This document shows positions 15,981 to 36,167 of a DNA stretch of 64,000 bases, one piece after another (the first letter of the stretch is position 1; each line of letters opens with the position of its first letter). The stretch comes from a virus (Duplodnaviria > Caudoviricetes). The DNA lies in IMG/VR virus record IMGVR_UViG_3300031994_000013, positions 64,001 to 128,000 of that record; one strand, given 5' to 3'. The translations under genes were made by a program, and so were the position numbers. The notes below the pieces were generated by a model. It was given only the letters and a program-made list of their open reading frames with translations. It ran no database searches and had not been told where the DNA came from.

Positions 15981-16133
15981 ATGTACGACATTTTCCACAT
16001 CGGCAAAGTTTTTGAGGTCTGGAAGCAAGACGGATGCGGCGGCAGCGAGAAAAAAGCAAGCTTCAAATCAGAAGCAGCAGCACGCAACTACATCAAGCGT
16101 CAAGGCGGCGAGCTTAATAAAATCTACGGCTAA
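15981..16133 (+). CDS. Small hypothetical protein (50 aa)
   Basis: AAGGAGG RBS, MYDIFHIGKVF...; followed by GCAA-loop terminator AAGGACGC/GCGTCCTT. Confidence 0.7.
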   Translation: MYDIFHIGKVFEVWKQDGCGGSEKKASFKSEAAARNYIKRQGGELNKIYG

Positions 16134-16402
16134 GGACGCGCAAGCGTCCTTTTGGGATTTGGATGTTACACATCCAATTTCCTAACGCAGAAGCAATGTT
16201 AAATCTTTGTAAAGCCTATTGACTTTACAACTTAATGGGTATATAATAGTAGGTAAAAGTCGCAAGCGCAAGCGCACAATAAGGAATAAACCTCATTGTT
16301 GATTTTTTGAATACTTAATATCCAACTTAACCAACAATTAACTTGACTATTTATATAGATAGTGATATAATGATACCATCAAAAGAGAGGAGATAAACAA
16401 CT

Positions 16403-16672
16403 ATGAAGATTGTAGTAAATAGGTGCTTTGGTGGGTTCAGCGTGAGCGATGAAGCTTGCGAAGCGTTAGGACTGGATAGCATATACGGCGCAGACAGATA
16501 CGATGAGCGCTTGATTCACATGGTAGAAGATAACGCATACGAAACAAGTGGCTGGGCTGCGAAGCTGGCAGTGGTAGAAATACCAGACGAAGCAACAGAC
16601 CATATTATTATTGACTACGATGGTTGTGAGTCAGTGTGCTATGTAGTAGATGGCAAAATCTACAGGACGTGA
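16403..16672 (+). CDS. Conserved phage hypothetical protein (MKIVVNRCFGGF type)
   Basis: Promoter, RBS, recognisable phage-family motifs GGF and YDGCE. Confidence 0.8.
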   Translation: MKIVVNRCFGGFSVSDEACEALGLDSIYGADRYDERLIHMVEDNAYETSGWAAKLAVVEIPDEATDHIIIDYDGCESVCYVVDGKIYRT

Positions 16673-16803
16673 AAACGTCCTAAGCTTTTTTTGGATGTTA
16701 AACATCCAACTTATATTGCTATGTTAAATATATGTTAATGCACTTGACAAGTATGTATGTATATGGTATAATAGGACTATCAAAAGCAAAGGAGAACAAA
16801 ATC

Positions 16804-17028
16804 ATGGCGCTTCAAAAAATTAATAAGTCTCGCGCCCGTAAAGCGTTCAACGCTAATCAACCCATTTGGATAACAGCATGTTACATGCGTCCCGAAACTG
16901 GCATTCGTTTGAATAGTGAATGTTATGCAGATTTAGAACATGATTTTGATAAAATTGTAAATGCATTTCAATACTACAATTGTAGTAATGAGACTGGGCG
17001 TTATCCCGCATACTACATTGAAACTTAA
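16804..17028 (+). CDS. Phage hypothetical protein
   Basis: AAGGAG RBS; FQYYNC..ETGRYPAYY motif. Confidence 0.75.
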   Translation: MALQKINKSRARKAFNANQPIWITACYMRPETGIRLNSECYADLEHDFDKIVNAFQYYNCSNETGRYPAYYIET

Positions 17029-17180
17029 CAGAGTGGCGCATACGCGCCTTTCTACTTATATTTTGGATGTTAAACATCCAACTTTTTCTGCCTTTTCTTC
17101 AAAACTTAACATAAAAAACTCTTGCTTTTATTCCGACACTATGATATAATTACATCATCAAATGAAGGAGGGGTTATCCT

Positions 17181-17432
17181 ATGAAAAACTACTACATCAA
17201 GTTCTACGGCAACGCGCGTGACCTTGCTATTGCAATCAGCACCTTTGAAACTGTTTGCATGTTAGTTTTCAATGTGCGCCCATTAAAAATATATACGCAC
17301 AACGGCGGGCGCGTTGTAGAGTATCCCGCAACAATGAAAAAATTCAATGAATTTTACAAAGTTGCAATACAGCGCTTGCAGGAAGAACGCGACTTTCGCG
17401 GAAAAATTCCGCGCATCGTCGTCCCAGTATAA
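17181..17432 (+). CDS. Hypothetical protein
   Basis: Cassette promoter, GGAGG RBS, stop in hairpin loop. Confidence 0.75.
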   Translation: MKNYYIKFYGNARDLAIAISTFETVCMLVFNVRPLKIYTHNGGRVVEYPATMKKFNEFYKVAIQRLQEERDFRGKIPRIVVPV

Positions 17433-17557
17433 CTGGGGCGATAAGAATTGGATGTTAAACATCCAATATAGCGCATGACTATTTAATATAATCTTAACTT
17501 GACTTATTATATCCTATATGATATAATTATATCATCAAATGAAAGAGAGGAAAACTT

Positions 17558-17851
17558 ATGGAACTTATGAACGCCGAAGTTGCCCGCGCGAATGTCTCGG
17601 AACTTTATAACAACGTCCGCAAATGTATTTTACATACAGAGATTCCAAACTACATTGCCGAACTTAATAAAGCAATAGAAGAAGCAAGTAAAAAAGGCCG
17701 TCAGTCCATAGGGCGCAATTTGCCGCCATTTGATAATACAGACTTGGGGCAATTTGCTTCCAGATGCTTTATAGACGAACTCACAAAGATTGTACGAAAC
17801 GCAGGTTATACTATGCAATATCAATCAACACGCATAACATTAGGGTGGTAA
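17558..17851 (+). CDS. Hypothetical protein
   Basis: Cassette promoter, RBS, stop in hairpin loop. Confidence 0.75.
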   Translation: MELMNAEVARANVSELYNNVRKCILHTEIPNYIAELNKAIEEASKKGRQSIGRNLPPFDNTDLGQFASRCFIDELTKIVRNAGYTMQYQSTRITLGW

Positions 17852-18015
17852 TACCACTCTTATTGTTTTGGATGTTAAACATCCAACTTATCAACTCTTG
17901 CAATTTCATTTTTGTTTTTTATATAAAATTAACAAATTTTAATTTGATTTTCTATTGACAAAACTAACCCCATATGGTATAATTTCAATATCAAATGAAA
18001 GGAGAAAACAAGGTT

Positions 18016-18276
18016 ATGTGGTTGTTCTACGAGTACGGAAACTATATCCCTATGGGTAGTGATGGCGAATGGAAGTTACCCAGCGATGTTAAGTCTATGA
18101 AAAAATTGCGCGAAATGGCAACAAGCTTTCTCGGGCATAGATCAGGGCGCGTATATTGTATGCGGGCATGGACGCAGGAAATGTGCGAATTAACACCAGA
18201 TAATTTTGTCGCGTACATTATGCGTCACGGGCAACTACTTGCGTGGAGTCCAGGGTGCGCGCCGCAGGGGAGATAA
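18016..18276 (+). CDS. Hypothetical protein
   Basis: Cassette promoter, AAAGGAG RBS. Confidence 0.7.
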   Translation: MWLFYEYGNYIPMGSDGEWKLPSDVKSMKKLREMATSFLGHRSGRVYCMRAWTQEMCELTPDNFVAYIMRHGQLLAWSPGCAPQGR

Positions 18277-18410
18277 ATCCCCTTACGGGATTTGGATGTT
18301 AAACATCCAATTTCATTTTCCGCTTTAATCTATAATTAACATAAAAAACTATTGACAGTATCCCGAAACTATGTTATAATTATATCATCAAAAGAGAGGA
18401 GAAAAAAACA

Positions 18411-18638
18411 ATGACTATCAAGCAAGAAATCAGCATCCGCGACTTTGAATTCTGGGGCAACGCCGAAACAAACGCAAGCAAATTTACAGAAGAAGAGTGG
18501 GACGCAATTGAATTTGAATTAGAAGAACTTTATCCCGAAGGAATAGACTGCACCGAATTGAACGACAAATTTTCATTCTACATTGAAGATATTCTAAATA
18601 TAATCGGCATTACTGAAGAAGAATGGGAGGCGCGTTGA
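18411..18638 (+). CDS. Small acidic hypothetical protein
   Basis: Cassette promoter, RBS; strongly D/E-rich 75 aa. Confidence 0.8.
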   Translation: MTIKQEISIRDFEFWGNAETNASKFTEEEWDAIEFELEELYPEGIDCTELNDKFSFYIEDILNIIGITEEEWEAR

Positions 18639-18764
18639 GCGCCTCCGAGAAATTTGGATGTTAAACATCCAACTTTTACCATGGCGGCATTAACCGAAAC
18701 TTAACTTGACTTCTTACCCCTTGTGTGATACACTTATATCATCAAGTGAAGGGAGACAAAAACC

Positions 18765-18941
18765 ATGTTTGATATCATCGTTGTATATTCCAGCCTCATC
18801 AGCGCCAAATACTCCTTTACCTCCGAGCGCGCAGCTTGGGAAGCCGTTTCTATTCTTCAAAATAAAGACGCGGCTGCCGCGATTTTCGTCTATGACGACC
18901 ATCATCTCATATGGTCGTGTAACGACCCATTCGAGGAATAA
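18765..18941 (+). CDS. Small hypothetical protein (58 aa, not in ORF track)
   Basis: MFDIIVVYSS...NDPFEE; GGGAG RBS; stop in hairpin ATTCGAGGA/TCCTCGAAT. Confidence 0.7.
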   Translation: MFDIIVVYSSLISAKYSFTSERAAWEAVSILQNKDAAAAIFVYDDHHLIWSCNDPFEE

Positions 18942-19100
18942 TCCTCGAATGAAAAAAGTTGGATGTTAAACATCCAAATTATTTTCCGCGCGAATTTACC
19001 GCAACTTAACATAAAAAACTATTGACAAAATAGACCCCCTATGATATAATATAATTGTTCCAAAGGAAAGGAACAAATAAAAATTATGGAGGCTGCTACA

Positions 19101-19418
19101 ATGTACAGCAAGAAGATTCTTGATGGATACCGCTACATCACCATTAACTACGATCGCAATCTTAAATATTGTCCCTACGGTAGCGCGGGCGTGGATATTT
19201 ACCGCGATGGCACAATAGCGCTAATAAGCTACACCACCCGCGTTATTGAGATTAACAGGGCTGGATACTTGACTTGCACGGGTACATACAGCCCCACCAC
19301 GCGCAAACACATTAGAGCTTTTCTGAAAGAATACGCGCCGTCTCTCTGTTACGCCGATGTTAAGAGTATTGCATGCACGAATCAAAAAATTAACACTCGG
19401 ACGGGCGAACGGGATTAA
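19101..19418 (+). CDS. Phage hypothetical protein, paralog of 20481-20753
   Basis: LISYTT..YSPTTRKHI motif. Confidence 0.8.
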   Translation: MYSKKILDGYRYITINYDRNLKYCPYGSAGVDIYRDGTIALISYTTRVIEINRAGYLTCTGTYSPTTRKHIRAFLKEYAPSLCYADVKSIACTNQKINTRTGERD

Positions 19419-19557
19419 AATCCCGTTCAACTTTTTTGGATGTTAAACATCCAAATTCTTCTTGCGATGATTTACAATAACTTAACACAAAAAGGTATTG
19501 ACATAATAGGCGCGCAGTGCTATAATATAACCATCAAATGAAAGGGGACTAAAACTC

Positions 19558-19869
19558 ATGTACGAACTTCTGAAAGCTCTCAAAAACAACGATGGACTCA
19601 CGCTAAAAGCAGGTAAAGCTATATCCTACAAGACTGGTTATCAAGTCGCGGATTATGGCGTCGAGCGCAAGACTCTGAAAGCTGCTGTGCGAGCTGTGGA
19701 AAAGATGCAGGGAAGCTGCGGCATCTGGTATAGTGAAGGCGTCTATTATATCGACCATTCCTTCCGCGTCAGCACAAAAAGGGAAGCGTTAAGAATAGGT
19801 AAAGAACATAACCAAATCAGTGTGCTTAAATGGTCTGACATGAGTTTAGTTTATGTAAAGGAGGCGTAA
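19558..19869 (+). CDS. Hypothetical protein
   Basis: Cassette promoter, RBS. Confidence 0.75.
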   Translation: MYELLKALKNNDGLTLKAGKAISYKTGYQVADYGVERKTLKAAVRAVEKMQGSCGIWYSEGVYYIDHSFRVSTKREALRIGKEHNQISVLKWSDMSLVYVKEA

Positions 19870-19870
19870 A

Positions 19871-19957
19871 ATGAAAACGATAATGTTTGTTATAGCAATG
19901 TTAATTATCATAAGCGCCTTCATTAACTTCGTGTTAATAGCATATAAACGGCAGTGA
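19871..19957 (+). CDS. Small hydrophobic peptide (28 aa)
   Basis: GGAGG RBS; MKTIMFVIAMLIIISAFINFVLIAYKRQ; stop in hairpin loop. Confidence 0.55.
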   Translation: MKTIMFVIAMLIIISAFINFVLIAYKRQ

Positions 19958-20084
19958 CGCCGTTTATAAAAAAGTTGGATGTTAAACATCCAAATTATAT
20001 TTTCGCGTCTTAACAAACACTTAACTTGACACTTCGCGCGCTTTATGTTATAATACAAGCATCAAAGGAAAGGAAGTAAAAAAC

Positions 20085-20321
20085 ATGACACAGCTAATTT
20101 ACATCGTTACCTTCAAGGGGCTCACTCCCCAAGCTACCAACCTTTACGGCGGCGTTTGGGGTGCTTTTACCAGCTTCGATAAAGCTCGTAATCAAATTGA
20201 ATGCTGGATAGAAGATTACGAAGAAACCAAGCTGGATTATATAGAACAGGATAACGGCTTGCATGTCTATATCACTAATAAAGGCCGTTGGATAATTGAA
20301 CCGACTCTTTTGGACGATTAG
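20085..20321 (+). CDS. Hypothetical protein
   Basis: Cassette promoter, RBS, stop in hairpin loop. Confidence 0.75.
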   Translation: MTQLIYIVTFKGLTPQATNLYGGVWGAFTSFDKARNQIECWIEDYEETKLDYIEQDNGLHVYITNKGRWIIEPTLLDD

Positions 20322-20480
20322 CATCGTCCTTTAAAAAAGTTGGATGTTAAACATCCAAAAATCACCCAGCCGATTTAACACACTCTTAATACAAAAAACT
20401 ATTGACATATTGCCTCATATGTAGTATAATATAATTGTTCTTGAGGGAACGAAATAAAACAATTTTCGGAGGGTACAACA

Positions 20481-20753
20481 ATGACAAGGAAACTGAACGG
20501 CCATGAATACGCGCAAGCCCATGTAATTACTGACAGCGGTATTACTAAACTGATTAGCTACCACACCAAAGTAATTAGCATCGATAGTAAAGGTTGGCTA
20601 ACCTGCTATGGCCTGTATAGCCGCACGACTATTAAGCATATCGGCTGGTTTATGCGTGAGCTGGGGCTGAGCTACTATGACGCAAAGCAATGCTACCTTA
20701 ACCGTATGCAAATGAACATCAAAACCGGAGAGGTTCGTAAGCGCTGGCAATAA
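20481..20753 (+). CDS. Phage hypothetical protein, paralog of 19101-19418
   Basis: LISYHT..YSRTTIKHI motif. Confidence 0.8.
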   Translation: MTRKLNGHEYAQAHVITDSGITKLISYHTKVISIDSKGWLTCYGLYSRTTIKHIGWFMRELGLSYYDAKQCYLNRMQMNIKTGEVRKRWQ

Positions 20754-20877
20754 GCCAGCTTATTGATTTTGGATGTTAGACATCCAACTTTCCCATTTCG
20801 GCTTAACACAAACTTAACTTGACTTTATGAGCGTTTCGTGTTATAATTATACCATCAAAAGAAAGGAAGTAATCATT

Positions 20878-21134
20878 ATGAGTAAGAAAGATTTTGAAAC
20901 CGATGGCACTCGCAACGGCCTGAACGTGTTCTGCCCTATTGCTGACATGACATGCCCCTACTGTGATAAGGATGGGCTGTGCCACATCAGCGACCCGCTG
21001 GAAGAGTGCTCTGACTTTGGTGCCTACTATGAGAGCTGGGAAGAATATGAGAACAGCTGTAGCTACGACATTGAAGATGATGTTGATGAAATGGGCTTCA
21101 ACCCCTACGAGGCGGCTATGACTACGACTGCTAA
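20878..21134 (+). CDS. Acidic Cys-rich protein with probable 1-bp frameshift near 21111
   Basis: Restoring one G gives ...GFNPYEGGYDYDC* with TAA in the hairpin loop, as in other cassettes. Confidence 0.6.
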
Positions 21135-21272
21135 CGCAGTCGTTTTAGGAATTTGGATGTTAAACATCCAATTTCATTTTAAATGATTTAACTTTTATTT
21201 AATATAAAAATATATTGACAAACTCCCGAAACTATGATATAATGATATTATCAAAGAAAGGAGAGAATGTCT

Positions 21273-21428
21273 ATGAAGGTCTATATAGTATGGTATGAAT
21301 TAATAACAGTTACAAATAAAGTCGTAACTGCTATGTGGGGTATTTATGCAACTAAGGAAAAGGCACAAAATGAATTAAAAAAGTTAAAAATGTCTGATGC
21401 TTGGATAGAAGAAGAAATAGTGCAATAG
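21273..21428 (+). CDS. Small hypothetical protein (51 aa)
   Basis: MKVYIV...GIYATKEKA motif common in small phage proteins; stop in hairpin loop. Confidence 0.7.
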   Translation: MKVYIVWYELITVTNKVVTAMWGIYATKEKAQNELKKLKMSDAWIEEEIVQ

Positions 21429-21560
21429 CACTATTTTCTATATGACAATTTGGATGTTAAACATCCAAATTTCCTCTCCTACTTTAACAAACAATTAACT
21501 TGACAATTATCCCCTCTTATGCTATAATTTAATTGTAAAAAAGAAAGGAGAGAAAAAACA

Positions 21561-21914
21561 ATGAAGCAACTACTTAACGCTGAATTAACCCGCCATGTTG
21601 AAGTCTATCGCGCCGACCGCGTTCAACACATTATTAACGATATTGGTTTAGGGCAGGTCGTTAAGGAAGTTTATCGCCGTGGGCACGAGAAAGCACTTGC
21701 GGGACAAGCTGGTGTATATATCTGTATTACAGATACTGGCATCACCATCATCAAGGACGAGCTAAAACAAAAGATAATTACTATGTATGTTACAACCTTC
21801 CGTGAGCTGGTACAATGTTATAAGGGAGTAAATCGTATTCCAAGTTACTTACGGAAGAAAGTGGATAGAAATCAAATTAAGTTTATCAAAGCTGGAAAGA
21901 CAATTTGGCGCTAA
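21561..21914 (+). CDS. Hypothetical protein
   Basis: Cassette promoter, AAAGGAG RBS. Confidence 0.75.
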   Translation: MKQLLNAELTRHVEVYRADRVQHIINDIGLGQVVKEVYRRGHEKALAGQAGVYICITDTGITIIKDELKQKIITMYVTTFRELVQCYKGVNRIPSYLRKKVDRNQIKFIKAGKTIWR

Positions 21915-22056
21915 TCGCGCCAATTCATAATTTGGATGTTAAACATCCAAATATATTTATCGCATTTAACGCATTCTTAACTTGACATATCATACCCCGT
22001 GTGATATAATTTATACATCAAGTGAGGGAAAACCTCATAGAAAAGGAGAAAGAAAA

Positions 22057-23034
22057 ATGTTTGGAGTAATTGGTGCGATCATTGTACTTCTCGTAGGTTT
22101 CATTGGAACGGGCTTTATCAGGGATTATGATAGCAAGCCCATCAAGGGCGCACGAATTGGCTTGCGTATTGGAGCTGTCATTCTCGCCACCATTTTCATC
22201 CTGCTCGCGTGCGGCACACAGGTAAGAACAGGGCATACTGGTATTCCTGTAAAGTTCGGGCAGGTGCAGGACTACACTATGGAAAGTGGCCTTAACTGGC
22301 ACTCGCCGTTTATCAATGTAGTAGAAATGGATAACCGCGAACAGCGTTATCACTTTGAGTTGCTTGCTTTTAGTGCTGATTTGCAGGAAGTACAGGTTAA
22401 GGGCAGCGTAAATTACTGTATTGATAGCGCTAAGGCTATGAACCTGTATAAGACAGTAGGCGTTAATTATGAAACTATCCTTATTGTGCCCCGCACACAG
22501 GAAGCAGTTAAGAGCACATTTGGAGACTATACCGCCGAAGGACTGATTGAAAATCGTTCTGCCCTGTCAGAAAATATCGGTGCCGTACTGCGCGCCGACC
22601 TGTCTAAGTCTGGTATCAATGTAATCTCTATCTCTATTGAAGATATTGACTTTACTGACGCATTTACACAGGCGGTAGAAGCAAAGCAGGTAGCAACACA
22701 GGAGAAGTTGAGGGCGCAGACCGAGCAGGAGCGTCTAACTATGGAAGCCGAAGCTAAGGCAAAGCGTGATGTAATTAATGCTAATGCCGAAGCAGAGAAG
22801 GCTAAAATCGCAGCCGAAGCAGACCTTGAAGTTACGAAAATTCAGGCGGACGCCGCCGAATATGCGGGTTTGAAGGAAGCCGCTAAGAATAAGGCTATTG
22901 CGGAATGGCTGTCTGCTGACCTCCTTGATTATTACCGTATCCTTCAGTGGGATGGTAGGATGCCTGTAGTATATGGCAGTGAAACAATGTCGCTGATGGA
23001 CGTAGGCGGTCTGTTGGGAGAAGAGGGGAAATAA
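22057..23034 (+). CDS. SPFH/band 7/prohibitin-family membrane protein
   Basis: Two N-terminal TM helices, GLNWHSPF, coiled coil, C-terminal WDGRMP. Confidence 0.9.
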   Translation: MFGVIGAIIVLLVGFIGTGFIRDYDSKPIKGARIGLRIGAVILATIFILLACGTQVRTGHTGIPVKFGQVQDYTMESGLNWHSPFINVVEMDNREQRYHFELLAFSADLQEVQVKGSVNYCIDSAKAMNLYKTVGVNYETILIVPRTQEAVKSTFGDYTAEGLIENRSALSENIGAVLRADLSKSGINVISISIEDIDFTDAFTQAVEAKQVATQEKLRAQTEQERLTMEAEAKAKRDVINANAEAEKAKIAAEADLEVTKIQADAAEYAGLKEAAKNKAIAEWLSADLLDYYRILQWDGRMPVVYGSETMSLMDVGGLLGEEGK

Positions 23035-28222: not shown

Positions 28223-29749
28223 ATGTTCGTGAGTATCAATACCATTGACGCAATCTTGAAAACCCTACCTATCGGCTACTACTGCGGAAAGCAAGTCCCT
28301 GTTTCTCTTGATACGGAAGCACCCACCAGCTATTATTCGCCTATGGAAAACAAGATTGTTATTTCCTACCCTATTATTGCCAAAGGGCTGGAAGCAGTAA
28401 TGGATGAAAGCTATACAGAAACGGCTGTTCGTTCTATGCTCTATCACGAAATCAGCCATGTTATTTTGACTCCCGATGATTTACTTGAAGTGGCACGCAA
28501 TGAGCAGGAGTGCAATATTTTCAATATCTTTGAAGATGAACGCATTGAAACCCTTCTTAGCGATTATTACCTTGATACTGACTTCAAACAGCAGCTCCGT
28601 AATATTTGCCAGCTTGACCCCGCCGCGACTGACCCCATTCAACGCTTTTTCAATATTGTGCGTTTTCGCTATGGTAAAGCAGGATATATTGAAGAAGTAA
28701 AGAGAATAATTAACAAATATAACAATCTTACTGCTTTGGATGATTATGACAAATGTTGGGAATATTCCCGCGAAATAAGAGATTTATTTAGAAAAATCGC
28801 GGGTGACCCTGACGCTTGCAAGGTAGAAACCCCGCCGCAGAGTAAAAGCGGCGAAGGCGAAAAAGGTGACAAGGCCGATAAAAAAACCGCTACAACAGGC
28901 TTTGATGATGTTATAAAGAATGACGAAGCCGAAAAGACAGAAGAAGCCGAAGCCAAAGAAGCCGAAAGTGGTGAAGAAAATACAACTTGTGAAGCCCTTA
29001 GTCGCGCAATTGTCCGCGAAATAGCAAAGCAAGCCCTTTCTGCTGATAAAATGCTTAACGATAATGCTAAACAACAATTGGCGGGCGCAGAAAATATTAT
29101 TGAACGACTTATTTCTAATTTCAATAAAAAGAACTCAAACGGCTCTGGCTTTAATGCTTATAGCGGCGTATTTAATCCCCGCGCCGTGGTACGAGATGAT
29201 TATAAATATTTTGAGCGTTCAGCCGTGACAAATGGTAACACAAAATATGGAACTTGCCGCTTAAATCTGTTTCTTGACCGCTCTGGTAGCTTTAGGAATA
29301 ATGAAAGCATTGTAAATGCTTTACTGGCTTTCTTGTCCGAAGTCGAGAGAAAAAACCCCAATTTCTCTTTAAGCGTTTCATTTATCAATGATGAATTTGT
29401 AACCTGCCAAAGCGTTAAAGAGCGACAAATGCATTGTACTAATGGAAACGACTTGCCCAAAAACCTAACCGAGATTTTCAACAATCTTCAAAAAAAGGAC
29501 AGTTATAATTATAATATTTTCCTGTTTGATGGTGACGCTTTAAGTGATAATTCCGGCAGTGTAGAAACTTGCAGTGAGCTATTCAAACAGATAGACCAGC
29601 CCCATACTTGCCTTATTACCGATGTCGATAATAAACGGTATATGCGTAATGATTATCAATTCACTAAAGCAAAAGTTATTGTAACCAGTCAATACACCGA
29701 AAAGTTAATTGAAAATATTACAAAAGCTTTCCATATCATGTTCTCCTAA
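28223..29749 (+). CDS. VWA-domain protein with N-terminal HExxH domain (partner of the AAA+ ATPase)
   Basis: YHEISH...FEDERIE; MIDAS-like DRSGS and FDGD. Confidence 0.75.
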   Translation: MFVSINTIDAILKTLPIGYYCGKQVPVSLDTEAPTSYYSPMENKIVISYPIIAKGLEAVMDESYTETAVRSMLYHEISHVILTPDDLLEVARNEQECNIFNIFEDERIETLLSDYYLDTDFKQQLRNICQLDPAATDPIQRFFNIVRFRYGKAGYIEEVKRIINKYNNLTALDDYDKCWEYSREIRDLFRKIAGDPDACKVETPPQSKSGEGEKGDKADKKTATTGFDDVIKNDEAEKTEEAEAKEAESGEENTTCEALSRAIVREIAKQALSADKMLNDNAKQQLAGAENIIERLISNFNKKNSNGSGFNAYSGVFNPRAVVRDDYKYFERSAVTNGNTKYGTCRLNLFLDRSGSFRNNESIVNALLAFLSEVERKNPNFSLSVSFINDEFVTCQSVKERQMHCTNGNDLPKNLTEIFNNLQKKDSYNYNIFLFDGDALSDNSGSVETCSELFKQIDQPHTCLITDVDNKRYMRNDYQFTKAKVIVTSQYTEKLIENITKAFHIMFS

Positions 29750-29902
29750 ATCGAAGCGGGACGCCCAGCGTCCCGCCTTCCCCTATGAGAATTTGGATGT
29801 TAAACATCCAAGTTCCTCTATCCCAGCTTAACAAACTCTTAACTTGACAAATAACCCCTTGCATAGTATAATGTAGTTACAAAAGCAAAGGAGAAAAGAA
29901 AA

Positions 29903-30019
29903 ATGCTTACTGCTATTTCAATCGGAATTATAATCGCTATATTCGCAAGCGCAGTAATTCGAGCTTATGGATGGCAGGATATTAAGCAAAGAATAAAAAT
30001 GATGTTAATGAAAAAGTGA
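29903..30019 (+). CDS. Small membrane peptide
   Basis: AAAGGAG RBS; MLTAISIGIIIAIFASAV... Confidence 0.5.
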   Translation: MLTAISIGIIIAIFASAVIRAYGWQDIKQRIKMMLMKK

Positions 30020-30118
30020 TATAACAAACTCTTAACTTGACAATCTCCCGAATCTATGATATAATTACAGCGTAATCAAGGGAAGGAAAACCCTTACAAA
30101 CCAGAAAGGTAGAAAAGT

Positions 30119-30523
30119 ATGACTAAGAAGAACGCCCTGACTATCGTTGCCCAGACCATCAACGCTTGCGACCTCTCCAGCTTCACCGATGACCAGCAGA
30201 ACACGATTAAGGACGCGCTTGATGTTGTCAGCGGCATGATTGACCAGCTCTCCGCTACCCGCGCTTCCTCTCCCGAAGCCAAGGAAAAGCGCAAGGAAGC
30301 CACCGCAGCCGCGCGTGCTGAACTCGTTGCCAAGGTTGCTCCTGTCCTCCGCAAGCACCTTGCTTCCGACATTACCGCCAAGGACTTGTATGACGCCGCG
30401 AAAGCCGAACTGCCCGCCGACTTTAATTGGCAGAAGGTTCAGAACATCTTGCTTCGTGAAATGGCAACCGAGCTTGTTAAGACCGAAGCCAAGGGCAAGG
30501 CAAATGTGTATCGCTTGAAGTAA
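30119..30523 (+). CDS. Putative winged-helix DNA-binding protein, paralog of 24923-25255
   Basis: MTKKNAL vs MTKNTL starts; LPADF motif; followed by terminator AAAGCCCGCC/GGCGGGCTTTTT. Confidence 0.65.
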   Translation: MTKKNALTIVAQTINACDLSSFTDDQQNTIKDALDVVSGMIDQLSATRASSPEAKEKRKEATAAARAELVAKVAPVLRKHLASDITAKDLYDAAKAELPADFNWQKVQNILLREMATELVKTEAKGKANVYRLK

Positions 30524-30662
30524 TCCAAAGCCCGCCACACGGCGGGCTTTTTCTTAAAAGAAAATTGGATGTTTAACATCCAGTTTGGTCTTAACCCACT
30601 TTTAACTTGACAACTGCAATTATTATGATATAATAAGTATATCAAACAAAGGAGAAACACAA

Positions 30663-31103
30663 ATGATTTATTGCGGTTATCAAGGTTGCGGCAAATCCAC
30701 CTATTGTAAGGCGCACCCCGACACAACTATTGATTTAGATAGTTCTAACTTTCCCAAAATTGATAGATGGGAATATAATTATATAGCAGTCGCGCACAAG
30801 TTAGAGCTAACCACAAATAAAGCCGTATTTATTTCGGCGCATCAATGTGTTATCAATGCGTTAATGGCTTTACATATCCCCTTTGAAGTATTCGTACCCG
30901 CGCACGATAAAGAAGCATGGCGGCATCGTTTAGCTTTTCGGTATAACAACGCGCCGCATCAATGTAATTTCAATGCGCTTGCTGACTTTGAAAAGAATTT
31001 TGAAAAAGATATGGCATTTTATCTTACCCTCCCCGCCGAAATAGTTCATTATGTATCGGCAAAAATCATAACCGATATGAGCGATTACATAACACAATCT
31101 TAA
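30663..31103 (+). CDS. P-loop NTPase (kinase-like)
   Basis: GYQGCGKST and IDLDSS. Confidence 0.7.
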   Translation: MIYCGYQGCGKSTYCKAHPDTTIDLDSSNFPKIDRWEYNYIAVAHKLELTTNKAVFISAHQCVINALMALHIPFEVFVPAHDKEAWRHRLAFRYNNAPHQCNFNALADFEKNFEKDMAFYLTLPAEIVHYVSAKIITDMSDYITQS

Positions 31104-31163
31104 CTTGACAAATTGCCTAACTCACGGTATAATAGATACATAAAGAGCAAGGAGAGTAAGCCA

Positions 31164-31829
31164 ATGAAACCTATTATCTACTATGTTATCTATTGCGGAG
31201 CGGCAGTTAGTTCTATCCACTATGAAAGTCGGTCTGCGGCAGAAAAGGCGGCAAAGCTTTACACTCGTATTAGCGGTTGTGAATGGAAAGTGCGGATGAT
31301 GGTTGGGAGTGTGGCAAATGACTAAGATATATTACAAAGTTGTTAAGTATGATGAAGATGGCAGAAAAATCTCAATACTTTTTACAAGTCGTCAAAGCAC
31401 GGAAAATTACATTCTCTCACACAATCCACCGCTACTTTCTTACACCATAATAGACGAAGAAGAAGAAGATTTAGAAAGTGAGGAATAAAATATGACAGAC
31501 TACAAAAAAATAATTGAAATTCTACGCAAAACAGAAAGCACAAGCCCCGAAGCATTTTATCTTATGGAAGATAGTAAATATAAATACATTGTTTTCACTT
31601 GTAATGATGAATGGTATGAAACACAAATTGCATTTGATAAAGAAACAGAAGAGATAAGGGAGATACAATAATGAAGAAGCAAAAAGAAACCAACCCCATG
31701 TATGATGCTTGGCGCAAACAGCGCGGTGATTGGGGCGCAATATCACCAATTACTCGCATCATCCGCAACAAGAAGCGCGACACCAAATTAAAATATCCAA
31801 AGCAAGAAAAAGAAAGGGATGGAGAATAG
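31164..31829 (+). CDS. Four small coupled ORFs (31164-31325, 31318-31488, 31492-31671, 31671-31829)
   Basis: Overlapping or abutting start/stop codons with RBSs after one cassette promoter. Confidence 0.6.
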
Positions 31830-31972
31830 CCGCCCTTCACTTATTTGGATGTTAAACATCCAAAATAGGGTCGCCGCCACTTTACACAAACTTAACTTGA
31901 CAAATTACCCCTATAGTGATATACTATACCCAAGAAGTGAAGGAAAACACTGCAAACCGAAAGGAATAAAGA

Positions 31973-32962
31973 ATGAAGAAGAAAACCTATCTTGTGCTTG
32001 ACAGCGAAACAGCTACCCTTGACTTTGCGGATGAACTTGCCGCAGGTGACGCAGAAAAGAAAAAGAAAATCGCTATTGCTCGCCCGCTTATTTATGATAT
32101 CGGATGGACTATTTGCGACCGCCAAGGTAACATCATCAAAAAAGCACAATATCTTATTAGCGAAATCTTTAGTATTCCTGCTATTTTTAATACTGCCTAC
32201 TACGCCAGTAAGCGTCCTATATATATTGATATGCTCGCAAAGGGCGAAACAAGCATTAAGCCGTGGCGCGAAGTAATGAAGGAACTTGTTATTGATATGG
32301 GCGCAGTCGATGCCGTGGGCGCGTATAATGCTATGTTTGATTTTAAGAAAGCAATTCCATTTACTGAACTGTATATCAATAAGTTGTATAGCGCAGATTA
32401 TTATAATTGGTATAATCAGCAGAAAAAACTTTGTGCCTATATCATTAGCCACCCTTATGTCAAGCCCGAAGATAAAGAATTTGACCCTAACAATTTTCTT
32501 TTCCGTGGTGTAAATTATCCTCTATTCGATATTTGGGGATTAGCAACTACTCATTTACTTGATAGGGTTTCTTATCGTGAAGAATGCCTAAAGCATGGCT
32601 TGCTTACTGCCAGCGGTATTTATTTTAAGTCCAGCGCAGAAAGCACCTATCAGTATTTAGCAAAAAAGTATAGCTTTGTGGAAGCCCATACTGCCCTTGA
32701 TGATGCGACAATTGAGACTTTTATTCTGTCTAAAATCGCAACAAGGCATAAAGTCAGTATTGGAATTAAGTATTTCCCTTTCCGTGATTTAGGATATACT
32801 ACAGATTTTGTTTTAACCCGCCCGCGCCTTAATATCGATTACATTCATATTGTGCGCGATGCAATTCAAACATACATTGACGCGCAAGCCGAAGAAACGA
32901 CCTATGTTAAAGGTTTGTTAAATCGAATCGCGCAACTTGATGCGATTCTCGCGGTGGCATAG
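31973..32962 (+). CDS. DEDDh 3'-5' exonuclease
   Basis: LDSET, AYNAMFD, HTALDDA. Confidence 0.85.
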   Translation: MKKKTYLVLDSETATLDFADELAAGDAEKKKKIAIARPLIYDIGWTICDRQGNIIKKAQYLISEIFSIPAIFNTAYYASKRPIYIDMLAKGETSIKPWREVMKELVIDMGAVDAVGAYNAMFDFKKAIPFTELYINKLYSADYYNWYNQQKKLCAYIISHPYVKPEDKEFDPNNFLFRGVNYPLFDIWGLATTHLLDRVSYREECLKHGLLTASGIYFKSSAESTYQYLAKKYSFVEAHTALDDATIETFILSKIATRHKVSIGIKYFPFRDLGYTTDFVLTRPRLNIDYIHIVRDAIQTYIDAQAEETTYVKGLLNRIAQLDAILAVA

Positions 32963-33092
32963 TACCACCGCAGGGGTTTTGGATGTTAAACATCCAACTT
33001 TACAAACTTTTAACTTGACAATTCACTCACCTCGTGCTATAATACATACATAAAGTGAAGGTCACACTTACAAACCAGAAAGGAACGAAATT

Positions 33093-33536
33093 ATGAAGAT
33101 TTACACCCTGACTTGGTTCTCCTCCAACAGCAGCTCTGTTCTTGGCGTTTATTCTACCTTTAACATTGCCGAACAGACTATGCATACTCTACTCGATAAA
33201 GACGAAGTCCTTGATTTAGAAAACGCTCATTCCTGCGGCGGCACTACCCGTTATCCTATACTGCGTCCCGACAATGTTACGGAATATTTTGAGATTCGCT
33301 TATTCTACCTTGACGATGATGAAGAAGAGGAAGAAGATTGGGACGAAGATGATGATGAAGATAATTGGGATGATGATGAAGAAGATGAAGAAGAGGATGA
33401 CTGGGATGATGATGATTGGAACGAAGACGATGAAGATGAGGATGAAGATTCTGATACCCTCACAATCTTGCAGGAACTTTTGAAGCATGGCGGCGATGTT
33501 AAGGTAGAACTTGAAATCGTCATTGAGGGGGAGTAA
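33093..33536 (+). CDS. Extremely acidic protein with D/E-W repeats
   Basis: About 48-residue D/E tract punctuated by Trp. Confidence 0.75.
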   Translation: MKIYTLTWFSSNSSSVLGVYSTFNIAEQTMHTLLDKDEVLDLENAHSCGGTTRYPILRPDNVTEYFEIRLFYLDDDEEEEEDWDEDDDEDNWDDDEEDEEEDDWDDDDWNEDDEDEDEDSDTLTILQELLKHGGDVKVELEIVIEGE

Positions 33537-33789
33537 TCCCCCTTTTCTTTTGTGCGCCTTTTTGGATGTTTAACATCCAACTTAATTATAAATTAACTTG
33601 ACTATCATGATATTGTATGATATAATATATTTATCAAATGAAGGGAGAGAAAAAAATGACTATTGTATTTGTTCTTGTTATCCTGTTAGTAGCTTACCTT
33701 ATCTTTGCAGATTGGATGATGTAACAAATTTTTAACTTGACAAATTTCAAAATCTGTGATATAATATATATAGAAATTAAGAAAGGGGA

Positions 33790-34038
33790 ATGAAAATGAT
33801 TGAGAAGTATGAACGCGACCTTCCCACTCTAACCGATGACGATTTGGAAACACTCATTGATATGTTTCAAGCCGAATTGCAAATGAGACAAGAGGAACAT
33901 GATAAGGTTAGACGGCAATATCAAGACGAACTTGACCGACTACTCACGGCAATGGAAGGCGATGGTTTCTACATCACTACTCCCGATAACCCCGCTGGTC
34001 TTACTGATTATATTGTCGAAGAAATAAAGGAGCACTAA
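33790..34038 (+). CDS. Acidic hypothetical protein
   Basis: Promoter, RBS. Confidence 0.7.
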   Translation: MKMIEKYERDLPTLTDDDLETLIDMFQAELQMRQEEHDKVRRQYQDELDRLLTAMEGDGFYITTPDNPAGLTDYIVEEIKEH

Positions 34039-34039
34039 A

Positions 34040-34432
34040 ATGAAGATAGTATATATTGCTGATGATGGCAAAGAGTTTGAGACGGAAAAAGAGTGCAAGG
34101 AATACGAAGATAACCGTCCCGATATAAAAAAGCTAATTTGGGACGAGGTACTAATCGGCTATGACCAAAATGGGGTTATTTTAGAGTATAACTTGGCTGA
34201 CCCCGATTTTACCGATGAGGACTGGCTTGAAAAAGCGTTTTATATGCGCGTCACGCGCGGTCTAACGAAGAAGGAAATTAACGATTTTTATATAGAATAT
34301 GGCTTCAATCTTCCTTTTACTACCAAAGGACTTTACCGTTATGATTGGGAAAGCAGTAGTTGGATTTCGTATGAGGAAGATTATGCGAACTTCAAAAAGA
34401 AATGGAAACGATTTGAGGAAGGCGGGAATTAA
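34040..34432 (+). CDS. Hypothetical protein
   Basis: YIADDGKEFETEKECKEYE N-terminal motif common in phages; stop in hairpin. Confidence 0.75.
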   Translation: MKIVYIADDGKEFETEKECKEYEDNRPDIKKLIWDEVLIGYDQNGVILEYNLADPDFTDEDWLEKAFYMRVTRGLTKKEINDFYIEYGFNLPFTTKGLYRYDWESSSWISYEEDYANFKKKWKRFEEGGN

Positions 34433-34556
34433 CCCGTCTTACCAAACTTGGATGTTAAACATCCAAATAGTCCTCGCGCCACTTAACAAAGTTTTAACTT
34501 GACAAAATACCCCCGATGCGATATAATACCTATAGAAAAGCAAAGGAGATAAGAAT

Positions 34557-34754
34557 ATGAAAAAGACTGACGCCGATACCATTGTTTGGTCTGTATACGA
34601 CCAAGATTTTGTTGAATGGCTTTTCTATTACTTTGAAACAGTAGAACAAATGCCAAGCAAGAGAATAATCAATCTTATGGCGGCAGCGTTTAACAAAGGC
34701 AAGAAAAGCGGATATAACGAAGGATATGCTAAAGCGCGTGAAGATTGTTGGTAA
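34557..34754 (+). CDS. Hypothetical protein
   Basis: Cassette promoter, RBS. Confidence 0.65.
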   Translation: MKKTDADTIVWSVYDQDFVEWLFYYFETVEQMPSKRIINLMAAAFNKGKKSGYNEGYAKAREDCW

Positions 34755-34849
34755 GTTAAAAATCTCTTAACTTGACAATTCATCAACTCTGTGCTATAAT
34801 ATAATCAACAAGTGAAGGAAAACACTTCAAAACCAGAAAGGCAAATGTT

Positions 34850-35212
34850 ATGGCTAAGATTTCTAAGAATGTTGTTGATGCTGACCTCCGCAAGCAGGTA
34901 TTTACTGACCTCATCACCGATACCCCCACCGAGCTTGACCTTGACGATCCTCGTAAAAATTACATTAAGATTAACGACCGCCAGTATGGTGTTATTCTTA
35001 CCGACCTTAACGGCGTGGAGCGCTATGTGCGCGTTGGCGCGATTGTAGCAGAGGAACGCGAAGATATGACCGCGCGCAAGCTTATGGAAAGTGAAATCAA
35101 GGCATACAATGACGCGCAGGCAGAAAAGGCACGCAAGGCGGCAGAACACGCTAAGAAAGCCGAAGCCGACAAGGCAAAGCGCGAAGCTAAGGCAAAGAAG
35201 GAAGCGGAGTAA
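34850..35212 (+). CDS. Hypothetical protein with K/A/E-rich helical tail
   Basis: Leader AAACCAGAAAGG; stop in hairpin GAAGCGGA/TCCGCTTC. Confidence 0.75.
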   Translation: MAKISKNVVDADLRKQVFTDLITDTPTELDLDDPRKNYIKINDRQYGVILTDLNGVERYVRVGAIVAEEREDMTARKLMESEIKAYNDAQAEKARKAAEHAKKAEADKAKREAKAKKEAE

Positions 35213-35493
35213 TCCGCTTCTTCGCATTATTGGATGTTTAACATCCAATTTTACAAATATTTAACTTGACAACTTGGCGCGTCAGTGATATAATATAACT
35301 ACAAAAAGCAAAGTGGAGTAAATCAATGGACTGTAAGACTTGGAGAATTATTGTTGCTGTAATAGCTATCGCCCTTGCTATTGAAATAGCGTGTGAAATA
35401 ACAGGGATACCAATCTATTAACAGACTCTTAACTTGACAGAACGCACATGGTATGTTATAATGTAATTACAAAAAGCAAAGGAGAACAAAAGT

Positions 35494-35706
35494 ATGTGGA
35501 ATCTTGGGCGTTGGAATAACTTCTATCAAATCGTTGAATTGGTTGATTGGCGAGATACCGAAGAAGAAGTGCGCGAAACCTTGCAGATTTGGATTAGCGA
35601 TGAATACGCGAACAAGGATATTGAAAGCTTTTCCGAAGAACAGGATGGCGATACGACCATTATTACCATTGATGGTGATGAATATTGTATTTGGGAGGAA
35701 GAATAA
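35494..35706 (+). CDS. Small acidic protein
   Basis: Promoter, AAAGGAG RBS. Confidence 0.7.
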   Translation: MWNLGRWNNFYQIVELVDWRDTEEEVRETLQIWISDEYANKDIESFSEEQDGDTTIITIDGDEYCIWEEE

Positions 35707-35707
35707 A

Positions 35708-35896
35708 ATGAAGTGCCCCGATTGTAACACGAAGCTAACCGCTAATGAGACCTTTGACTTTGGTTGGGAAACTGGCAAAGAAGATAAGATAGTGGTTAAT
35801 GTTGCTGGTTTCTGTCCCGCCTGCGGGCGCAAGTTCCTTTGGACGCAGCACTACACTTTGGTAAGTGAAGATGAGTTGGAGGATGATGTATATTAA
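35708..35896 (+). CDS. Small zinc-ribbon protein
   Basis: MKCPDC...CPAC; GGAGG RBS. Confidence 0.7.
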   Translation: MKCPDCNTKLTANETFDFGWETGKEDKIVVNVAGFCPACGRKFLWTQHYTLVSEDELEDDVY

Positions 35897-36167
35897 GGGC
35901 GCGTAAGCGCCCTTGTTTTTTTTTGGATGTTAGACATCCAAATTCCCCTCTTGACAAATCTCAAAAAATATGGTATATTTTATATTTTATATTTTCCCTA
36001 TTCATTATATCACACCCCGTGTTAAGATTCAAGCAATTTTGTATGAAATAAATATTAAATTTATATTAACTTTACCTAATTTTAACATAATAAATTTTTG
36101 ACTTTTAGTGAAATTTGTGGTATAATAAATATAGAAAGAAAGGAAAGGACATATATAATATCAAATA

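Follow-up and report, generated by a model that had tools for sequence, protein, structure and literature searches.

A repeated 19-bp palindrome as a putative shared operator and exchange joint of early-gene cassettes in a clade of large phages

What is the function of a 19-bp palindrome that a phage genome carries in 30 copies, all of them between the small genes of one 20-kb region? The question is raised by an array within a 64,000-nucleotide stretch of phage DNA (termed here the window), which belongs to a genome of 167,250 bp:

16159..35941 (+): array of 30 units, each consisting of a GC-rich terminator hairpin, a 19-bp palindrome and a sigma-A-type promoter, which separate co-oriented small-gene cassettes

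The answer favored here, with moderate confidence, is that the palindrome is a symmetric operator common to about 30 early promoters and, at the same time, a crossover joint for cassette exchange. In other words, these phages probably control their cassettes through this common site, and it is there that they gain and lose genes.

The palindrome has the form TTGGATGTT-W-AACATCCAA, and its 30 copies all lie at positions 16159-35941 of the window. A scan with TTGGATGTTWAACATCCAA that allows up to two mismatches returns 30 matches, 26 of them exact and 4 with one mismatch; shuffled sequences yield a mean of 0.01 matches, and none of 100 shuffles reaches 30. Scanning the whole genome added no copy to these 30 (a reversed-pattern control gave 0), and TTGGATGTT by itself likewise occurs 30 times genome-wide, every time inside the array. 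An earlier, sequence-only reading of the window had counted 30 palindromes and none elsewhere, with arms that are constant save at position 30583 and with a varying center; this description holds for the window and, as regards the count, for the full genome as well. The centers are TTAAA (22 copies), TTTAA (5), TTAGA (2) and TTACA (1), and the sole arm change is the terminal G at 30583. The copies, located by motif scan and given with no strand, are as follows:

16159..16177: copy 1, center TTACA
16691..16709: copy 2
17063..17081: copy 3
17448..17466: copy 4
17868..17886: copy 5, 68 nt to the -35 box
18292..18310: copy 6
18654..18672: copy 7
18959..18977: copy 8
19436..19454: copy 9
19975..19993: copy 10
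20340..20358: copy 11
20769..20787: copy 12, center TTAGA
21153..21171: copy 13
21450..21468: copy 14
21932..21950: copy 15
23059..23077: copy 16
23965..23983: copy 17, weak upstream hairpin (-3.7 kcal/mol)
24531..24549: copy 18
25295..25313: copy 19
26058..26076: copy 20
26869..26887: copy 21
28113..28131: copy 22
29793..29811: copy 23
30565..30583: copy 24, terminal G
31845..31863: copy 25
32979..32997: copy 26
33562..33580: copy 27
34448..34466: copy 28
35230..35248: copy 29
35923..35941: copy 30, with the -35 box 9 nt away, as is standard among the relatives

Each copy had been placed between the end of one gene and the promoter of the next, and the anatomy agrees: a hairpin of -9.9 kcal/mol or lower lies 0-17 nt upstream of 27 of the 30 copies (median upstream hairpin -14.6 kcal/mol, versus -6.7 for 40 random 55-nt stretches of the array), and 29 in-array promoters that fit a strict pattern lie at most 70 nt downstream of a palindrome (promoter and motif calls here being based on regular expressions). 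These promoters are near the sigma-A-type consensus, with TTGACA, a 17-nt spacer and TG-n-TATAAT. The distance from palindrome to -35 box, already described as variable, ranges in this genome from 9 to 68 nt, with 31-34 nt in 13 units and 40-44 nt in 8; the rarer gaps are 17 nt (three units), 23 nt (two), 28 nt (two), 9 nt (one) and 68 nt (one). One unit illustrates the arrangement around copy 11:

20312..20329 (+): terminator hairpin, ending 10 nt before copy 11
20402..20430 (+): promoter with TTGACA, a 17-nt spacer and TATAAT, 43 nt after copy 11
20481..20753 (+): cassette gene of 90 aa for which no family was found; a paralogue lies at 19086-19418

Eleven more in-array promoters, which had gone unremarked before, carry no palindrome, and a hairpin is likewise lacking upstream of them (median -7.2 kcal/mol). 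Thus in this genome the element tracks cassette boundaries, not promoters as such.

Cargo genes of the array, together with genes on either side of it, are these:

12494..13798 (-): 434-aa protein with a PHROG sigma factor match (4e-15) and a C-terminal endonuclease VII match (8e-5); no Pfam match
14482..15276 (-): 264-aa gene divergent from the array, at the same position in genomes G001 and G002
19558..19869 (+): 103 aa, from a strongly conserved family (columns 69% identical on average; 15 of 34 contigs)
21561..21914 (+): 117 aa, from a conserved family (columns 66% identical on average; 17 of 34 contigs)
22057..23034 (+): lipoprotein-like protein, phrog_200
23213..23962 (+): GIY-YIG/NUMOD-like, homing-endonuclease-like protein, with matches below the Pfam cut-offs
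24069..24515 (+): NT5C-type 5' nucleotidase-like protein, 22 of 34 contigs
25625..26041 (+): 138-aa protein with a K/E-rich tail, 23 of 34 contigs
27085..28083 (+): AAA_5-type ATPase
30119..30523 (+): DUF6958-like family, 1-3 paralogues per array, possible winged-helix protein
31973..32962 (+): present in 28 of 34 contigs, more than any other cassette; phrog_20187, weakly matching a DNA polymerase exonuclease subunit
36487..37866 (-): ResIII/helicase-like gene that forms the right bound of the array; a homologue bounds the array of G001

The product of 31973..32962 has DEDD-like motifs, as read by eye.

Is the element peculiar to this genome? Equivalent arrays, filled with the pattern TTRGATGT-N3-ACATCYAA, occur in 33 further contigs of uncultured phages, giving 740 sites across all 34. 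Motif positions 4-8 and 12-16 were fixed by the search pattern, so that their invariance is not a result; positions 1, 2, 18 and 19 were free, yet they are TT and AA in at least 98% of the sites. The position of the element relative to the promoter is conserved as well: in 528 of 616 oriented units of the relatives (this genome being left out) the palindrome ends 8-10 bp upstream of the -35 box, and in 447 it does so at exactly 9 bp, although the sequence of this 9-nt spacer is itself not conserved. The exceptional spacings cluster near 19, 29 and 40 bp (none at 11-16 bp, 24 at 17-21, 2 at 22-27, 16 at 28-31, 2 at 32-38 and 6 at 39-41). The spacings are thus in helical phase with the -35 box, as a protein sitting near -54 would require, although part of the regularity at 9 bp could stem from a single ancestor of all palindrome-promoter modules. 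The palindrome marks one promoter subset: within the arrays 442 of 541 strict promoters carry it, and about 35 similar promoters elsewhere in this genome do not. That the palindrome is the site of a homodimeric protein, as had been proposed, fits both its symmetry and its phasing in the relatives, with binding as such remaining putative.

Where, then, are cassettes gained and lost? The flanks of the array are syntenic with G001, and only 12 of the 33 array ORFs have a homologue there. Among relatives at 85-98% identity, 118 of 525 homology-block ends lie within 12 bp of a palindrome center, a fivefold excess over the 4.5% expected by chance, and 239 lie within 30 bp, versus 11% by chance. In 15 of 26 clean cassette insertions a palindrome occupies the empty site, and in 12 of the 26 there are palindromes at both ends of the insert and one at the empty site; in one example followed in detail, the crossover falls within the palindrome's right arm. 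Breakpoints of gain and loss in the close relatives map to the palindrome, and this comparison supports that part of the first model of the sequence-only reading, a homology or recombination joint. In this genome itself there is a hint that breakpoints may fall at the palindrome: a single relative's contig from run X4 begins to match the window at 20769 (copy 12) and resumes at 24528 (copy 18), both times at palindromes.

These junctions also bear on the best of the alternatives, which is nevertheless unlikely: that the palindrome is a dedicated recombination site, the core of a cassette-exchange system with its own enzyme, any effect on transcription being secondary. Precise flanking of insertions by palindromes, with one at the empty site, is what such a system would produce; moreover, the overlaps at insertion junctions are only 23-30 bp. 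RecA, RecT and ERF domains were sought in two complete genomes and none was found, nuclease-like genes occur in or beside the array, and palindromes stand at cassette boundaries rather than at internal promoters. The central triplet, moreover, is uniform inside one genome and differs from genome to genome, which suggests frequent exchange among copies. The enzyme would be either a recombinase of a new type or a nuclease that recognizes a sequence or a structure. Against such a system, a search of two complete genomes (G000 and G001) for tyrosine and serine recombinases (PF00589, Phage_integrase; PF00239, Resolvase), profiles that a very divergent recombinase fold could escape, found none, in line with the earlier statement that no recombinase is recognizable. 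Nor would a dedicated site need phasing with the -35 box in 10-bp steps, and in 11 of the 26 clean insertions the junctions lie elsewhere, some of them in the -10/RBS region, as homology-driven exchange predicts. Because no integrase was found, the phage is probably virulent, as is probably the clade of array-bearing phages.

Also unlikely, and ranked behind it, is a role purely as a roadblock or insulator, in which a bound protein would halt read-through from weak terminators, in the manner of the stoperators of cluster A mycobacteriophages, and shield the next promoter while leaving initiation untouched. The palindrome always follows a hairpin, several of these hairpins having no clear T-tract, and it is missing from internal promoters without a terminator; in the 447 units with 9-bp spacing, the most frequent base 6-9 nt before the palindrome is T (fraction 0.49-0.64). 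A roadblock, however, does not need helical phasing with the -35 box, and stoperators, as described in PMC9283540, are asymmetric and follow the direction of transcription, whereas the palindrome is symmetric. Another unlikely alternative is an activator site, at which a dimer on the palindrome would draw in host RNA polymerase, for example via the alpha C-terminal domain in class I style: the site lies upstream of the -35 box at a fixed spacing with 10-bp alternatives. That the cassette promoters are already near consensus, and that about 35 similar promoters outside the array in this genome have no palindrome, speaks against activation.

Might the palindrome act instead as a hairpin of RNA or single-stranded DNA, whether to mark a processing site, to contribute to the terminator or to affect the stability of transcripts that read through? 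It does fold into an 8-11 bp stem beside the terminator hairpin, but this reading is very improbable. Lying after the terminator and before the next promoter, the palindrome is expected to be absent from most transcripts; 493 of 645 sites keep positions 9 and 11 complementary, though these would fall in the loop and cannot pair across 1 nt; and the often asymmetric pair 3/17 combines A with C in 23 sites and G with T in only 9, so that, in gene orientation, A-C mismatches outnumber G-U pairs. Symmetry at 9/11 together with asymmetry at 3/17 would fit a protein, not a hairpin. A search of window positions 14000-38000 against Rfam 15 at the gathering score returned 0 matches. Just as improbable is the third of the earlier models, in which the sites would titrate a host protein as decoys or serve to coat the DNA that enters first: many clustered copies of one site might suit it, but a decoy gives no reason for phasing with promoters, and among the matches listed in a 596-Gb genome scan no candidate host is enriched for the motif, nearly all being single sites in unrelated taxa, as by chance, and the few multi-copy ones phage-like fragments or an unrelated repeat.

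The reading favored here, a shared operator that doubles as an exchange joint, may be put as follows. The palindrome is the common boundary element of the hyperplastic early-gene region in a clade of large ruminant-gut Firmicutes-type phages, a region in which every cassette has a sigma-A-type promoter and a terminator hairpin to itself, with one or a few small genes in between. A dimeric DNA-binding protein would occupy all of the roughly 30 two-fold symmetric operator sites, whose center lies, in most of the clade, at about -54 relative to the promoter, and would thereby run the cassettes as one regulon. A site near -54 is outside the core promoter, so plain steric repression is unlikely; shut-off or insulation of very strong early promoters is favored here over activation. 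The master operator of the sequence-only reading therefore survives as the best functional reading, its basis being geometry. The palindrome is also the only sequence common to all cassettes, which would make it the place where co-infecting relatives trade cassettes, acquire new ones and lose others. Several observations count against this reading: the loose spacing to the -35 box in this genome, the 11 in-array promoters that lack the palindrome, the failure to find RecA, RecT or ERF domains in two complete genomes, and the fact that general homologous recombination usually needs more than 19-30 bp. Protein binding, the direction of regulation, and exchange by general homologous recombination as against a dedicated enzyme are what we infer from these patterns.

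Which protein might bind? A conserved phage protein is the most likely binder. One possibility is a MarR_2/HTH_24-like protein of 116 aa, present in G000 and G001 (61% identity) and in all five further near-complete relatives searched (36-68% identity); another is a 58-aa HTH_3 protein. The DUF6958-like product of 30119..30523 is a candidate as a lead only.

How does this element compare with known systems? Integrons, too, have arrays of co-oriented small cassettes with palindromic separators at which cassettes are gained and lost; integron cassettes, however, are promoterless, and their recombination takes place at long imperfect palindromes (attC) through IntI, a tyrosine recombinase encoded next to the array. 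Here each cassette has its own promoter and terminator, the separator is a perfect 19-mer palindrome, and neither a Phage_integrase (PF00589) nor a Resolvase match was found in the two complete genomes; an attC/cassette system was rejected on the grounds of the cassettes' own promoters and the missing PF00589 match, and with it goes the integron-like part of the first earlier model.

Stoperators of cluster A mycobacteriophages, as described in PMC9283540, resemble the palindrome in that a single site recurs tens of times in the short gaps between genes, and in being repeated repressor sites that act on transcription across a phage genome (a repressor role being, for the palindrome, a proposal). 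They are, however, asymmetric, transcription-oriented, genome-wide and bound by the monomeric immunity repressor of temperate phages, whereas the palindrome has perfect inverted-repeat arms, shows its center as TAA or TTA in either orientation within one co-oriented array, and is confined to 20 kb. SPBRE, identified by ChAP-seq and EMSA as the site of the SPbeta master repressor MrpR (PMC10516654), is likewise a short repeat in many early-gene promoter regions of a large Firmicutes phage, a likeness in general description; that account gives about 10 sites in a temperate phage, versus 30 sites in an array of a probably virulent one, and MrpR has a tyrosine-recombinase fold, whereas neither G000 nor G001 has a PF00589 or PF00239 match. 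For a small phage DNA-binding protein that shuts off its own phage's early host-type promoters, T7 Gp5.7 is a precedent: small and winged-helix-like, it represses those promoters of the phage genome that the host polymerase uses (PMC5569994), but it offers no repeated palindromic operator array for comparison.

The closest likeness is to the promoter-early stem-loop (PeSL) cassettes of T4-type phages, for which PMC2839356 and PMC4122927 describe indel and replacement breakpoints within a repeated intergenic element. In both systems the genes are small, mostly unknown early genes of a hyperplastic region, each has a strong host-type promoter and a stem-loop terminator, and breakpoints between related phages fall in the repeated intergenic element, here as seen in the relatives; in this genome, too, a terminator stem-loop lies beside a strong host-type early promoter between small genes of the hyperplastic region. 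The phages here are Firmicutes-type rather than T4-like, and the repeated homology that those papers describe is the promoter and stem-loop, whereas here the hairpins all differ and the repeat is a separate, perfect 19-bp palindrome, which the clade has conserved and which, in the relatives, keeps phase with the -35 box. We read the palindrome, accordingly, as a Firmicutes-phage variant of the T4-type PeSL elements.

At a tolerance of two mismatches or fewer, TTGGATGTTWAACATCCAA matches the window 30 times, always within 16159-35941, and dinucleotide shuffles of the window give a chance expectation of 0.01 matches. The sequence-only reading, which had claimed 30 copies between cassettes and none elsewhere in the window, therefore stands; and the full-genome scan that it proposed recovers the same 30 copies, all in the array and none outside it, from the entire 167,250-bp record (termed here G000; the window spans its bases 64001-128000), which ends in an exact terminal repeat of 127 bp. 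The palindrome centres are TTAAA (22 copies), TTTAA (5), TTAGA (2) and TTACA (1), and among the 30 copies the arms, described earlier as invariant except for one terminal base, indeed change only once, to a terminal G at 30583.

Inspection of the flanks of these 30 sites shows a common order: after the stop of one gene comes a GC-rich hairpin and, 0-17 nt further on, the palindrome; a spacer then leads to a promoter (TTGACA, 17 nt, TG-n-TATAAT), which is followed by a strong Shine-Dalgarno sequence and a small plus-strand gene. The sequence of the terminator hairpin differs at each of the 30 sites; a hairpin of -9.9 kcal/mol or lower precedes 27 of the 30 palindromes, with a median of -14.6 kcal/mol versus -6.7 for random array stretches. 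The distance from palindrome to -35 box within G000 is as variable as had been noted, running from 9 to 68 nt (13 units at 31-34 nt, 8 at 40-44, 3 at 17, 2 each at 23 and 28, and single units at 9 and 68). A second module, TTAAC-N6-TTAAC, takes up much of this spacer and abuts the -35 box; the 40-44-nt class carries in addition an A-rich 11-nt insert. Eleven more array promoters have the TTAAC module and lack both the palindrome and the upstream hairpin (median -7.2 kcal/mol). Contigs of the X3 metatranscriptome span palindromes and terminators; because these contigs may come from DNA, they are uninformative on transcript ends.

Two host-type promoter classes occur in this one genome. Those inside the array combine TTGACA with a GC-richer spacer and TTAAC-N6-TTAAC ahead, and about 35 similar promoters outside the array, of the form TTGACTTTT-nnnn-AAAnTTATGnTATAAT (in the window, for example, at 36098, 38565, 40615 and 45336), have a conserved T/A-rich spacer and neither TTAAC module nor palindrome; the array promoters of relatives resemble the latter class. 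A stretch of ATA repeats (about 36303-36335) just past the array's end comes straight after a consensus promoter at 36274.

The palindrome observation, thus confirmed, extends to a clade. A megablast query of 10 kb from the array matched no DNA relatives among 50,697 phage records, and the exact motif is almost confined to G000, occurring in only two IMG/VR contigs; one such match led to G001, a related phage genome of 189,572 bp with 34 copies of TTAGATGTTAAACATCTAA at the same genomic position. A degenerate pattern, TTRGATGTNNNACATCYAA, was needed to reveal further relatives, and it occurs in at least 113 IMG/VR stretches. Among the matches listed, and with adjacent loci stitched together, 34 contigs (G000 and 33 relatives, several of 130-190 kb) carry arrays with 740 sites in all. 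(The 112 loci L020-L131 comprise 81 that were stitched, from 31 contigs; 4 from G001 and another relative, G002, that were replaced by fuller sequences; and 27, mostly single-site contigs, that were left out.) Positions 4-8 and 12-16 of the palindrome are fixed by the search pattern and hence constant by design. Positions 1, 2, 18 and 19, although left free, remain at least 98% TT/AA at the sites in arrays; position 3 has A at 570 sites and G at 74, and position 17 has T at 556 and C at 89. Each genome has a typical central triplet, for example AAT at 19 of 21 sites in one contig, TCA at 23 of 38 in another and TAA in G000. The window's own array has about 75% identity, at best, to its nearest relative. 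Enterococcus phage EF1, among the nearest cultured phages, has a comparable small-gene array from which this palindrome is absent. The EF1 array (L252:11766-18109) carries another palindrome, TGTGAA-N4-TTCACA, four times; it resembles a Rex box.

Across this clade the palindrome is phased with the promoter. Each site was oriented by its nearest promoter call, and the counts of spacing and symmetry disregard the 95 of 740 sites without a call on either side. Excluding G000, which is a spacing outlier within the clade, there are 616 orientable sites in 33 contigs, and 528 of them end 8-10 bp upstream of the -35 box, 447 at exactly 9 bp; the other distances include 11-16 bp (no sites), 17-21 (24), 22-27 (2), 28-31 (16), 32-38 (2) and 39-41 (6). 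Conversely, 442 of 541 strict promoters inside arrays have a palindrome within 70 nt upstream. Given a 17-nt promoter spacer, the palindrome is centred near -54. The 9-nt spacer between palindrome and -35 box has no strong consensus; this base-exact spacing over non-conserved sequence, with exceptions displaced in steps of a helical turn, is the pattern expected of a protein that has to face RNA polymerase.

Read as RNA, the palindrome is predicted to form a stem of 8-11 bp; but, since its place is between a terminator and the promoter that follows, most transcripts should exclude it. In 493 of 645 sites, positions 9 and 11 are complementary to each other, although they would fall in the loop of any hairpin, and the mismatched combinations of positions 3 and 17, taken in gene orientation, are A with C (23 times) more often than G with T (9 times), which is the opposite of what RNA pairing tolerates. 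No Rfam family matches the palindrome region. Taken together, these data are evidence for what would be a two-fold recognition of duplex DNA.

It had also been proposed that breakpoints in relatives be compared with the motif, and here the two coincide more often than by chance. Relatives include pairs at 85-98% identity, and 118 of 525 homology-block ends inside arrays fall within 12 bp of a palindrome centre (4.5% expected by chance) and 239 within 30 bp (11% by chance), with peaks at exactly +/-9 to 12, where the 19-mer has its outer edge. (For these counts and for those of indels and insertions below, HSPs shorter than 120-150 bp were set aside, as were block ends lying off the arrays or at most 30 bp from the end of a segment.) Among 99 neighbouring block pairs are 28 clean indels, 14 of them with all four ends within 30 bp of a palindrome. 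When merged, these give 26 insertion events of 161-1055 bp; in 15 of them a palindrome falls within the short overlap where the insert is missing, and 12 of these 15 have one at both ends of the insert as well. Neither the indels nor the insertion events are all independent, since some cassettes recur across contigs. The junctions of the other 11 events lie elsewhere, some in the -10/RBS region. For one 586-bp cassette, present in one contig and absent from another, a three-way comparison locates the crossover within the right arm. Within this window, a relative's contig from run X4 (about 95% alike) matches from 20769 and again from 24528, both of them palindromes, and between these points the GIY-YIG and nucleotidase cassettes have been replaced; this is a hint, not a count, from a run-contig comparison in which joints with short sides were left out. 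The GIY-YIG cassette (23337-24003) has the lowest summed contig depth in the array over runs X4, X7 and X10 and is among the array's lowest in X3. The order of cassettes between contigs follows a loose shared backbone, along which there are local permutations and duplications, and many cassettes are private. Homologues of 20 of the 33 array ORFs in G000 occur in at least one other contig, and of 12 in G001; 13 ORFs have none.

Most of the cargo remained without a name after Pfam and PHROGs searches, and profile searches against solved structures gave no significant match for conserved cargo or for a neighbouring 264-aa gene. The named cargo and the candidate binding proteins are these:

Array cargo: DEDD-like exonuclease, the most widespread cassette
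Array cargo: NT5C-like nucleotidase
Array cargo: GIY-YIG endonuclease-like protein
Array cargo: AAA_5 ATPase
Array cargo: lipoprotein-like protein
G000:C1:19018-19368, outside the window: MarR_2/HTH_24-like protein, 116 aa (E 3.6e-4, under the Pfam cut-off; atlas score 0.96)
G000:C1:9753-9929, outside the window: HTH_3 protein, 58 aa (above the cut-off)
Window 39617-39835: HU-like protein (weak match)

None of the cargo proteins shows a clear DNA-binding domain; in the family to which the gene at 30119-30523 belongs, 12 of 23 members match DUF6958 (best E 1.9e-5), and there are scattered weak winged-helix matches. The MarR-like protein has a homologue in G001 (61% identity) and in all five further near-complete relatives (36-68%), and the HTH_3 protein is present in three of the five near-complete relatives searched. 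The MarR-like, HTH_3 or HU-like protein could be the palindrome binder, and the DUF6958-like protein of 30119-30523 is a further candidate.

The portal protein has distant counterparts, at 23-30% identity, in large Firmicutes phages (Enterococcus EF1-like, Phass-1, SPbeta-like and Lactococcus 949-like). To the left of the array, on the minus strand, lie portal, terminase and further structural genes; to the right lie a ResIII helicase-like gene and NAD-salvage genes. The earlier statement that no recombinase is recognisable in the window holds for all of G000 and for the complete relative G001, in which a domain search found neither Phage_integrase nor Resolvase domains; the phage is therefore probably virulent. 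RecA, RecT and ERF domains are likewise absent from both genomes. Sequencing runs with at least a fifth of the sampled words are labelled as sheep, goat or gut metagenomes.

Several observations concern other parts of these genomes. Isochorismatase/nicotinamidase-like, nicotinamide phosphoribosyltransferase-like and NAD synthetase-like genes at window 40071-43232 may form an NAD salvage module. An HNH homing-endonuclease-like gene (9511-10590) lies amid matches to the terminase large subunit and related PHROGs (window 8542-12660), where the terminase gene may be interrupted. A single 4146-aa ORF stands among structural genes outside the window (G000:C1:49229-61669, minus strand). G001 (loci L009-L019) reads TAG as sense, for example at L018:13547-13631: its alignments to G000 proteins contain 144 in-frame TAG codons, 58 of them opposite Q and mainly in structural genes, and no TGA or TAA; and it has one tRNA with anticodon CTA besides 24 others. 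Its array genes stop at TAA (24), TGA (3) or TAG (1), which fits expression ahead of a code switch. G000 shows no TAG recoding and has 10 tRNAs, none a suppressor.

The best reading, which we somewhat favour, is that the palindrome is a putative shared operator that doubles as a cassette joint. That it is the core site of a dedicated, unrecognised cassette-exchange machinery--a phage integron without a tyrosine or serine recombinase--appears improbable. Integron cassettes are promoterless and IntI-dependent. The driver of the supposed phage machinery might be a nuclease specific for sequence or structure; candidates would be the 434-aa protein next to the array, which is sigma-like/endonuclease-VII-like, or the nucleases of GIY-YIG and HNH type. 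If this were true, a virulent gut phage clade would be actively shuffling its host-takeover genes at defined sites, and the same palindrome would also be the master operator of those genes.

A host regulon was dropped as an explanation, since the scan of genome contigs, including candidate hosts as had been suggested, yielded, among the matches listed, mostly single sites at chance level. Two recurrent bacterial contexts were seen. In several Neobacillus and Bacillus genomes (L188:667-685, L178, L200, L205, L208, L211) a conserved TTAGATGTATGACATCTAA, adjoining a CodY-box-like AATTTTCTGAAAATT, lies upstream of a small DeoR-like HTH gene; this lead was dropped, the gene having no homologue in G000 or G001. 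In Lachnospiraceae/Acetatifactor MAGs (L133, L164, L168, L170, L204) a dispersed repeat carries TTGGATGT-N3-ACATCCAA between conserved GC-rich hairpins; it was set aside as an element unrelated to the phage array.

For a shared operator that doubles as a joint, some 30 host-takeover or accessory genes would constitute one predicted regulon, whose regulator a single DNA probe could serve to fish out, and the 10-bp phasing would provide a clean test of a factor acting at -54, -64, -74 or -85 on sigma-A polymerase. Cassette boundaries could be read straight from sequence, the joint being a distinct, sharply defined 19-bp site rather than a promoter or terminator; and modular shuffling at regulatory cassettes would reach beyond T4-type coliphages to uncultured Firmicutes-type gut phages of 130-190 kb.

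Searched as words, four 19-mer forms of the motif yielded no mention in the literature, and a literature search on palindromic intergenic repeats of phage early-gene cassettes returned no related paper. As outlined for SPbeta, the SPBRE element, repeated at early promoters, can serve one master repressor, MrpR (PMC10516654); that system, however, is temperate and its repressor has a recombinase fold, and no such repressor was found in G000 or G001. Stoperators, as outlined in PMC9283540, are asymmetric, whereas this palindrome is symmetric. The closest known system is the promoter-early stem-loop (PeSL) of T4-type phages, composite motifs of promoter and stem-loop in hyperplastic regions, where, on the outline given in PMC2839356 and PMC4122927, ORFans are inserted, deleted and swapped. 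The phage array shares this logic; unlike the PeSL so described, however, its repeated sequence is a separate, perfectly symmetric 19-mer that is clade-wide, phased with the promoter and carried by Firmicutes-type phages.
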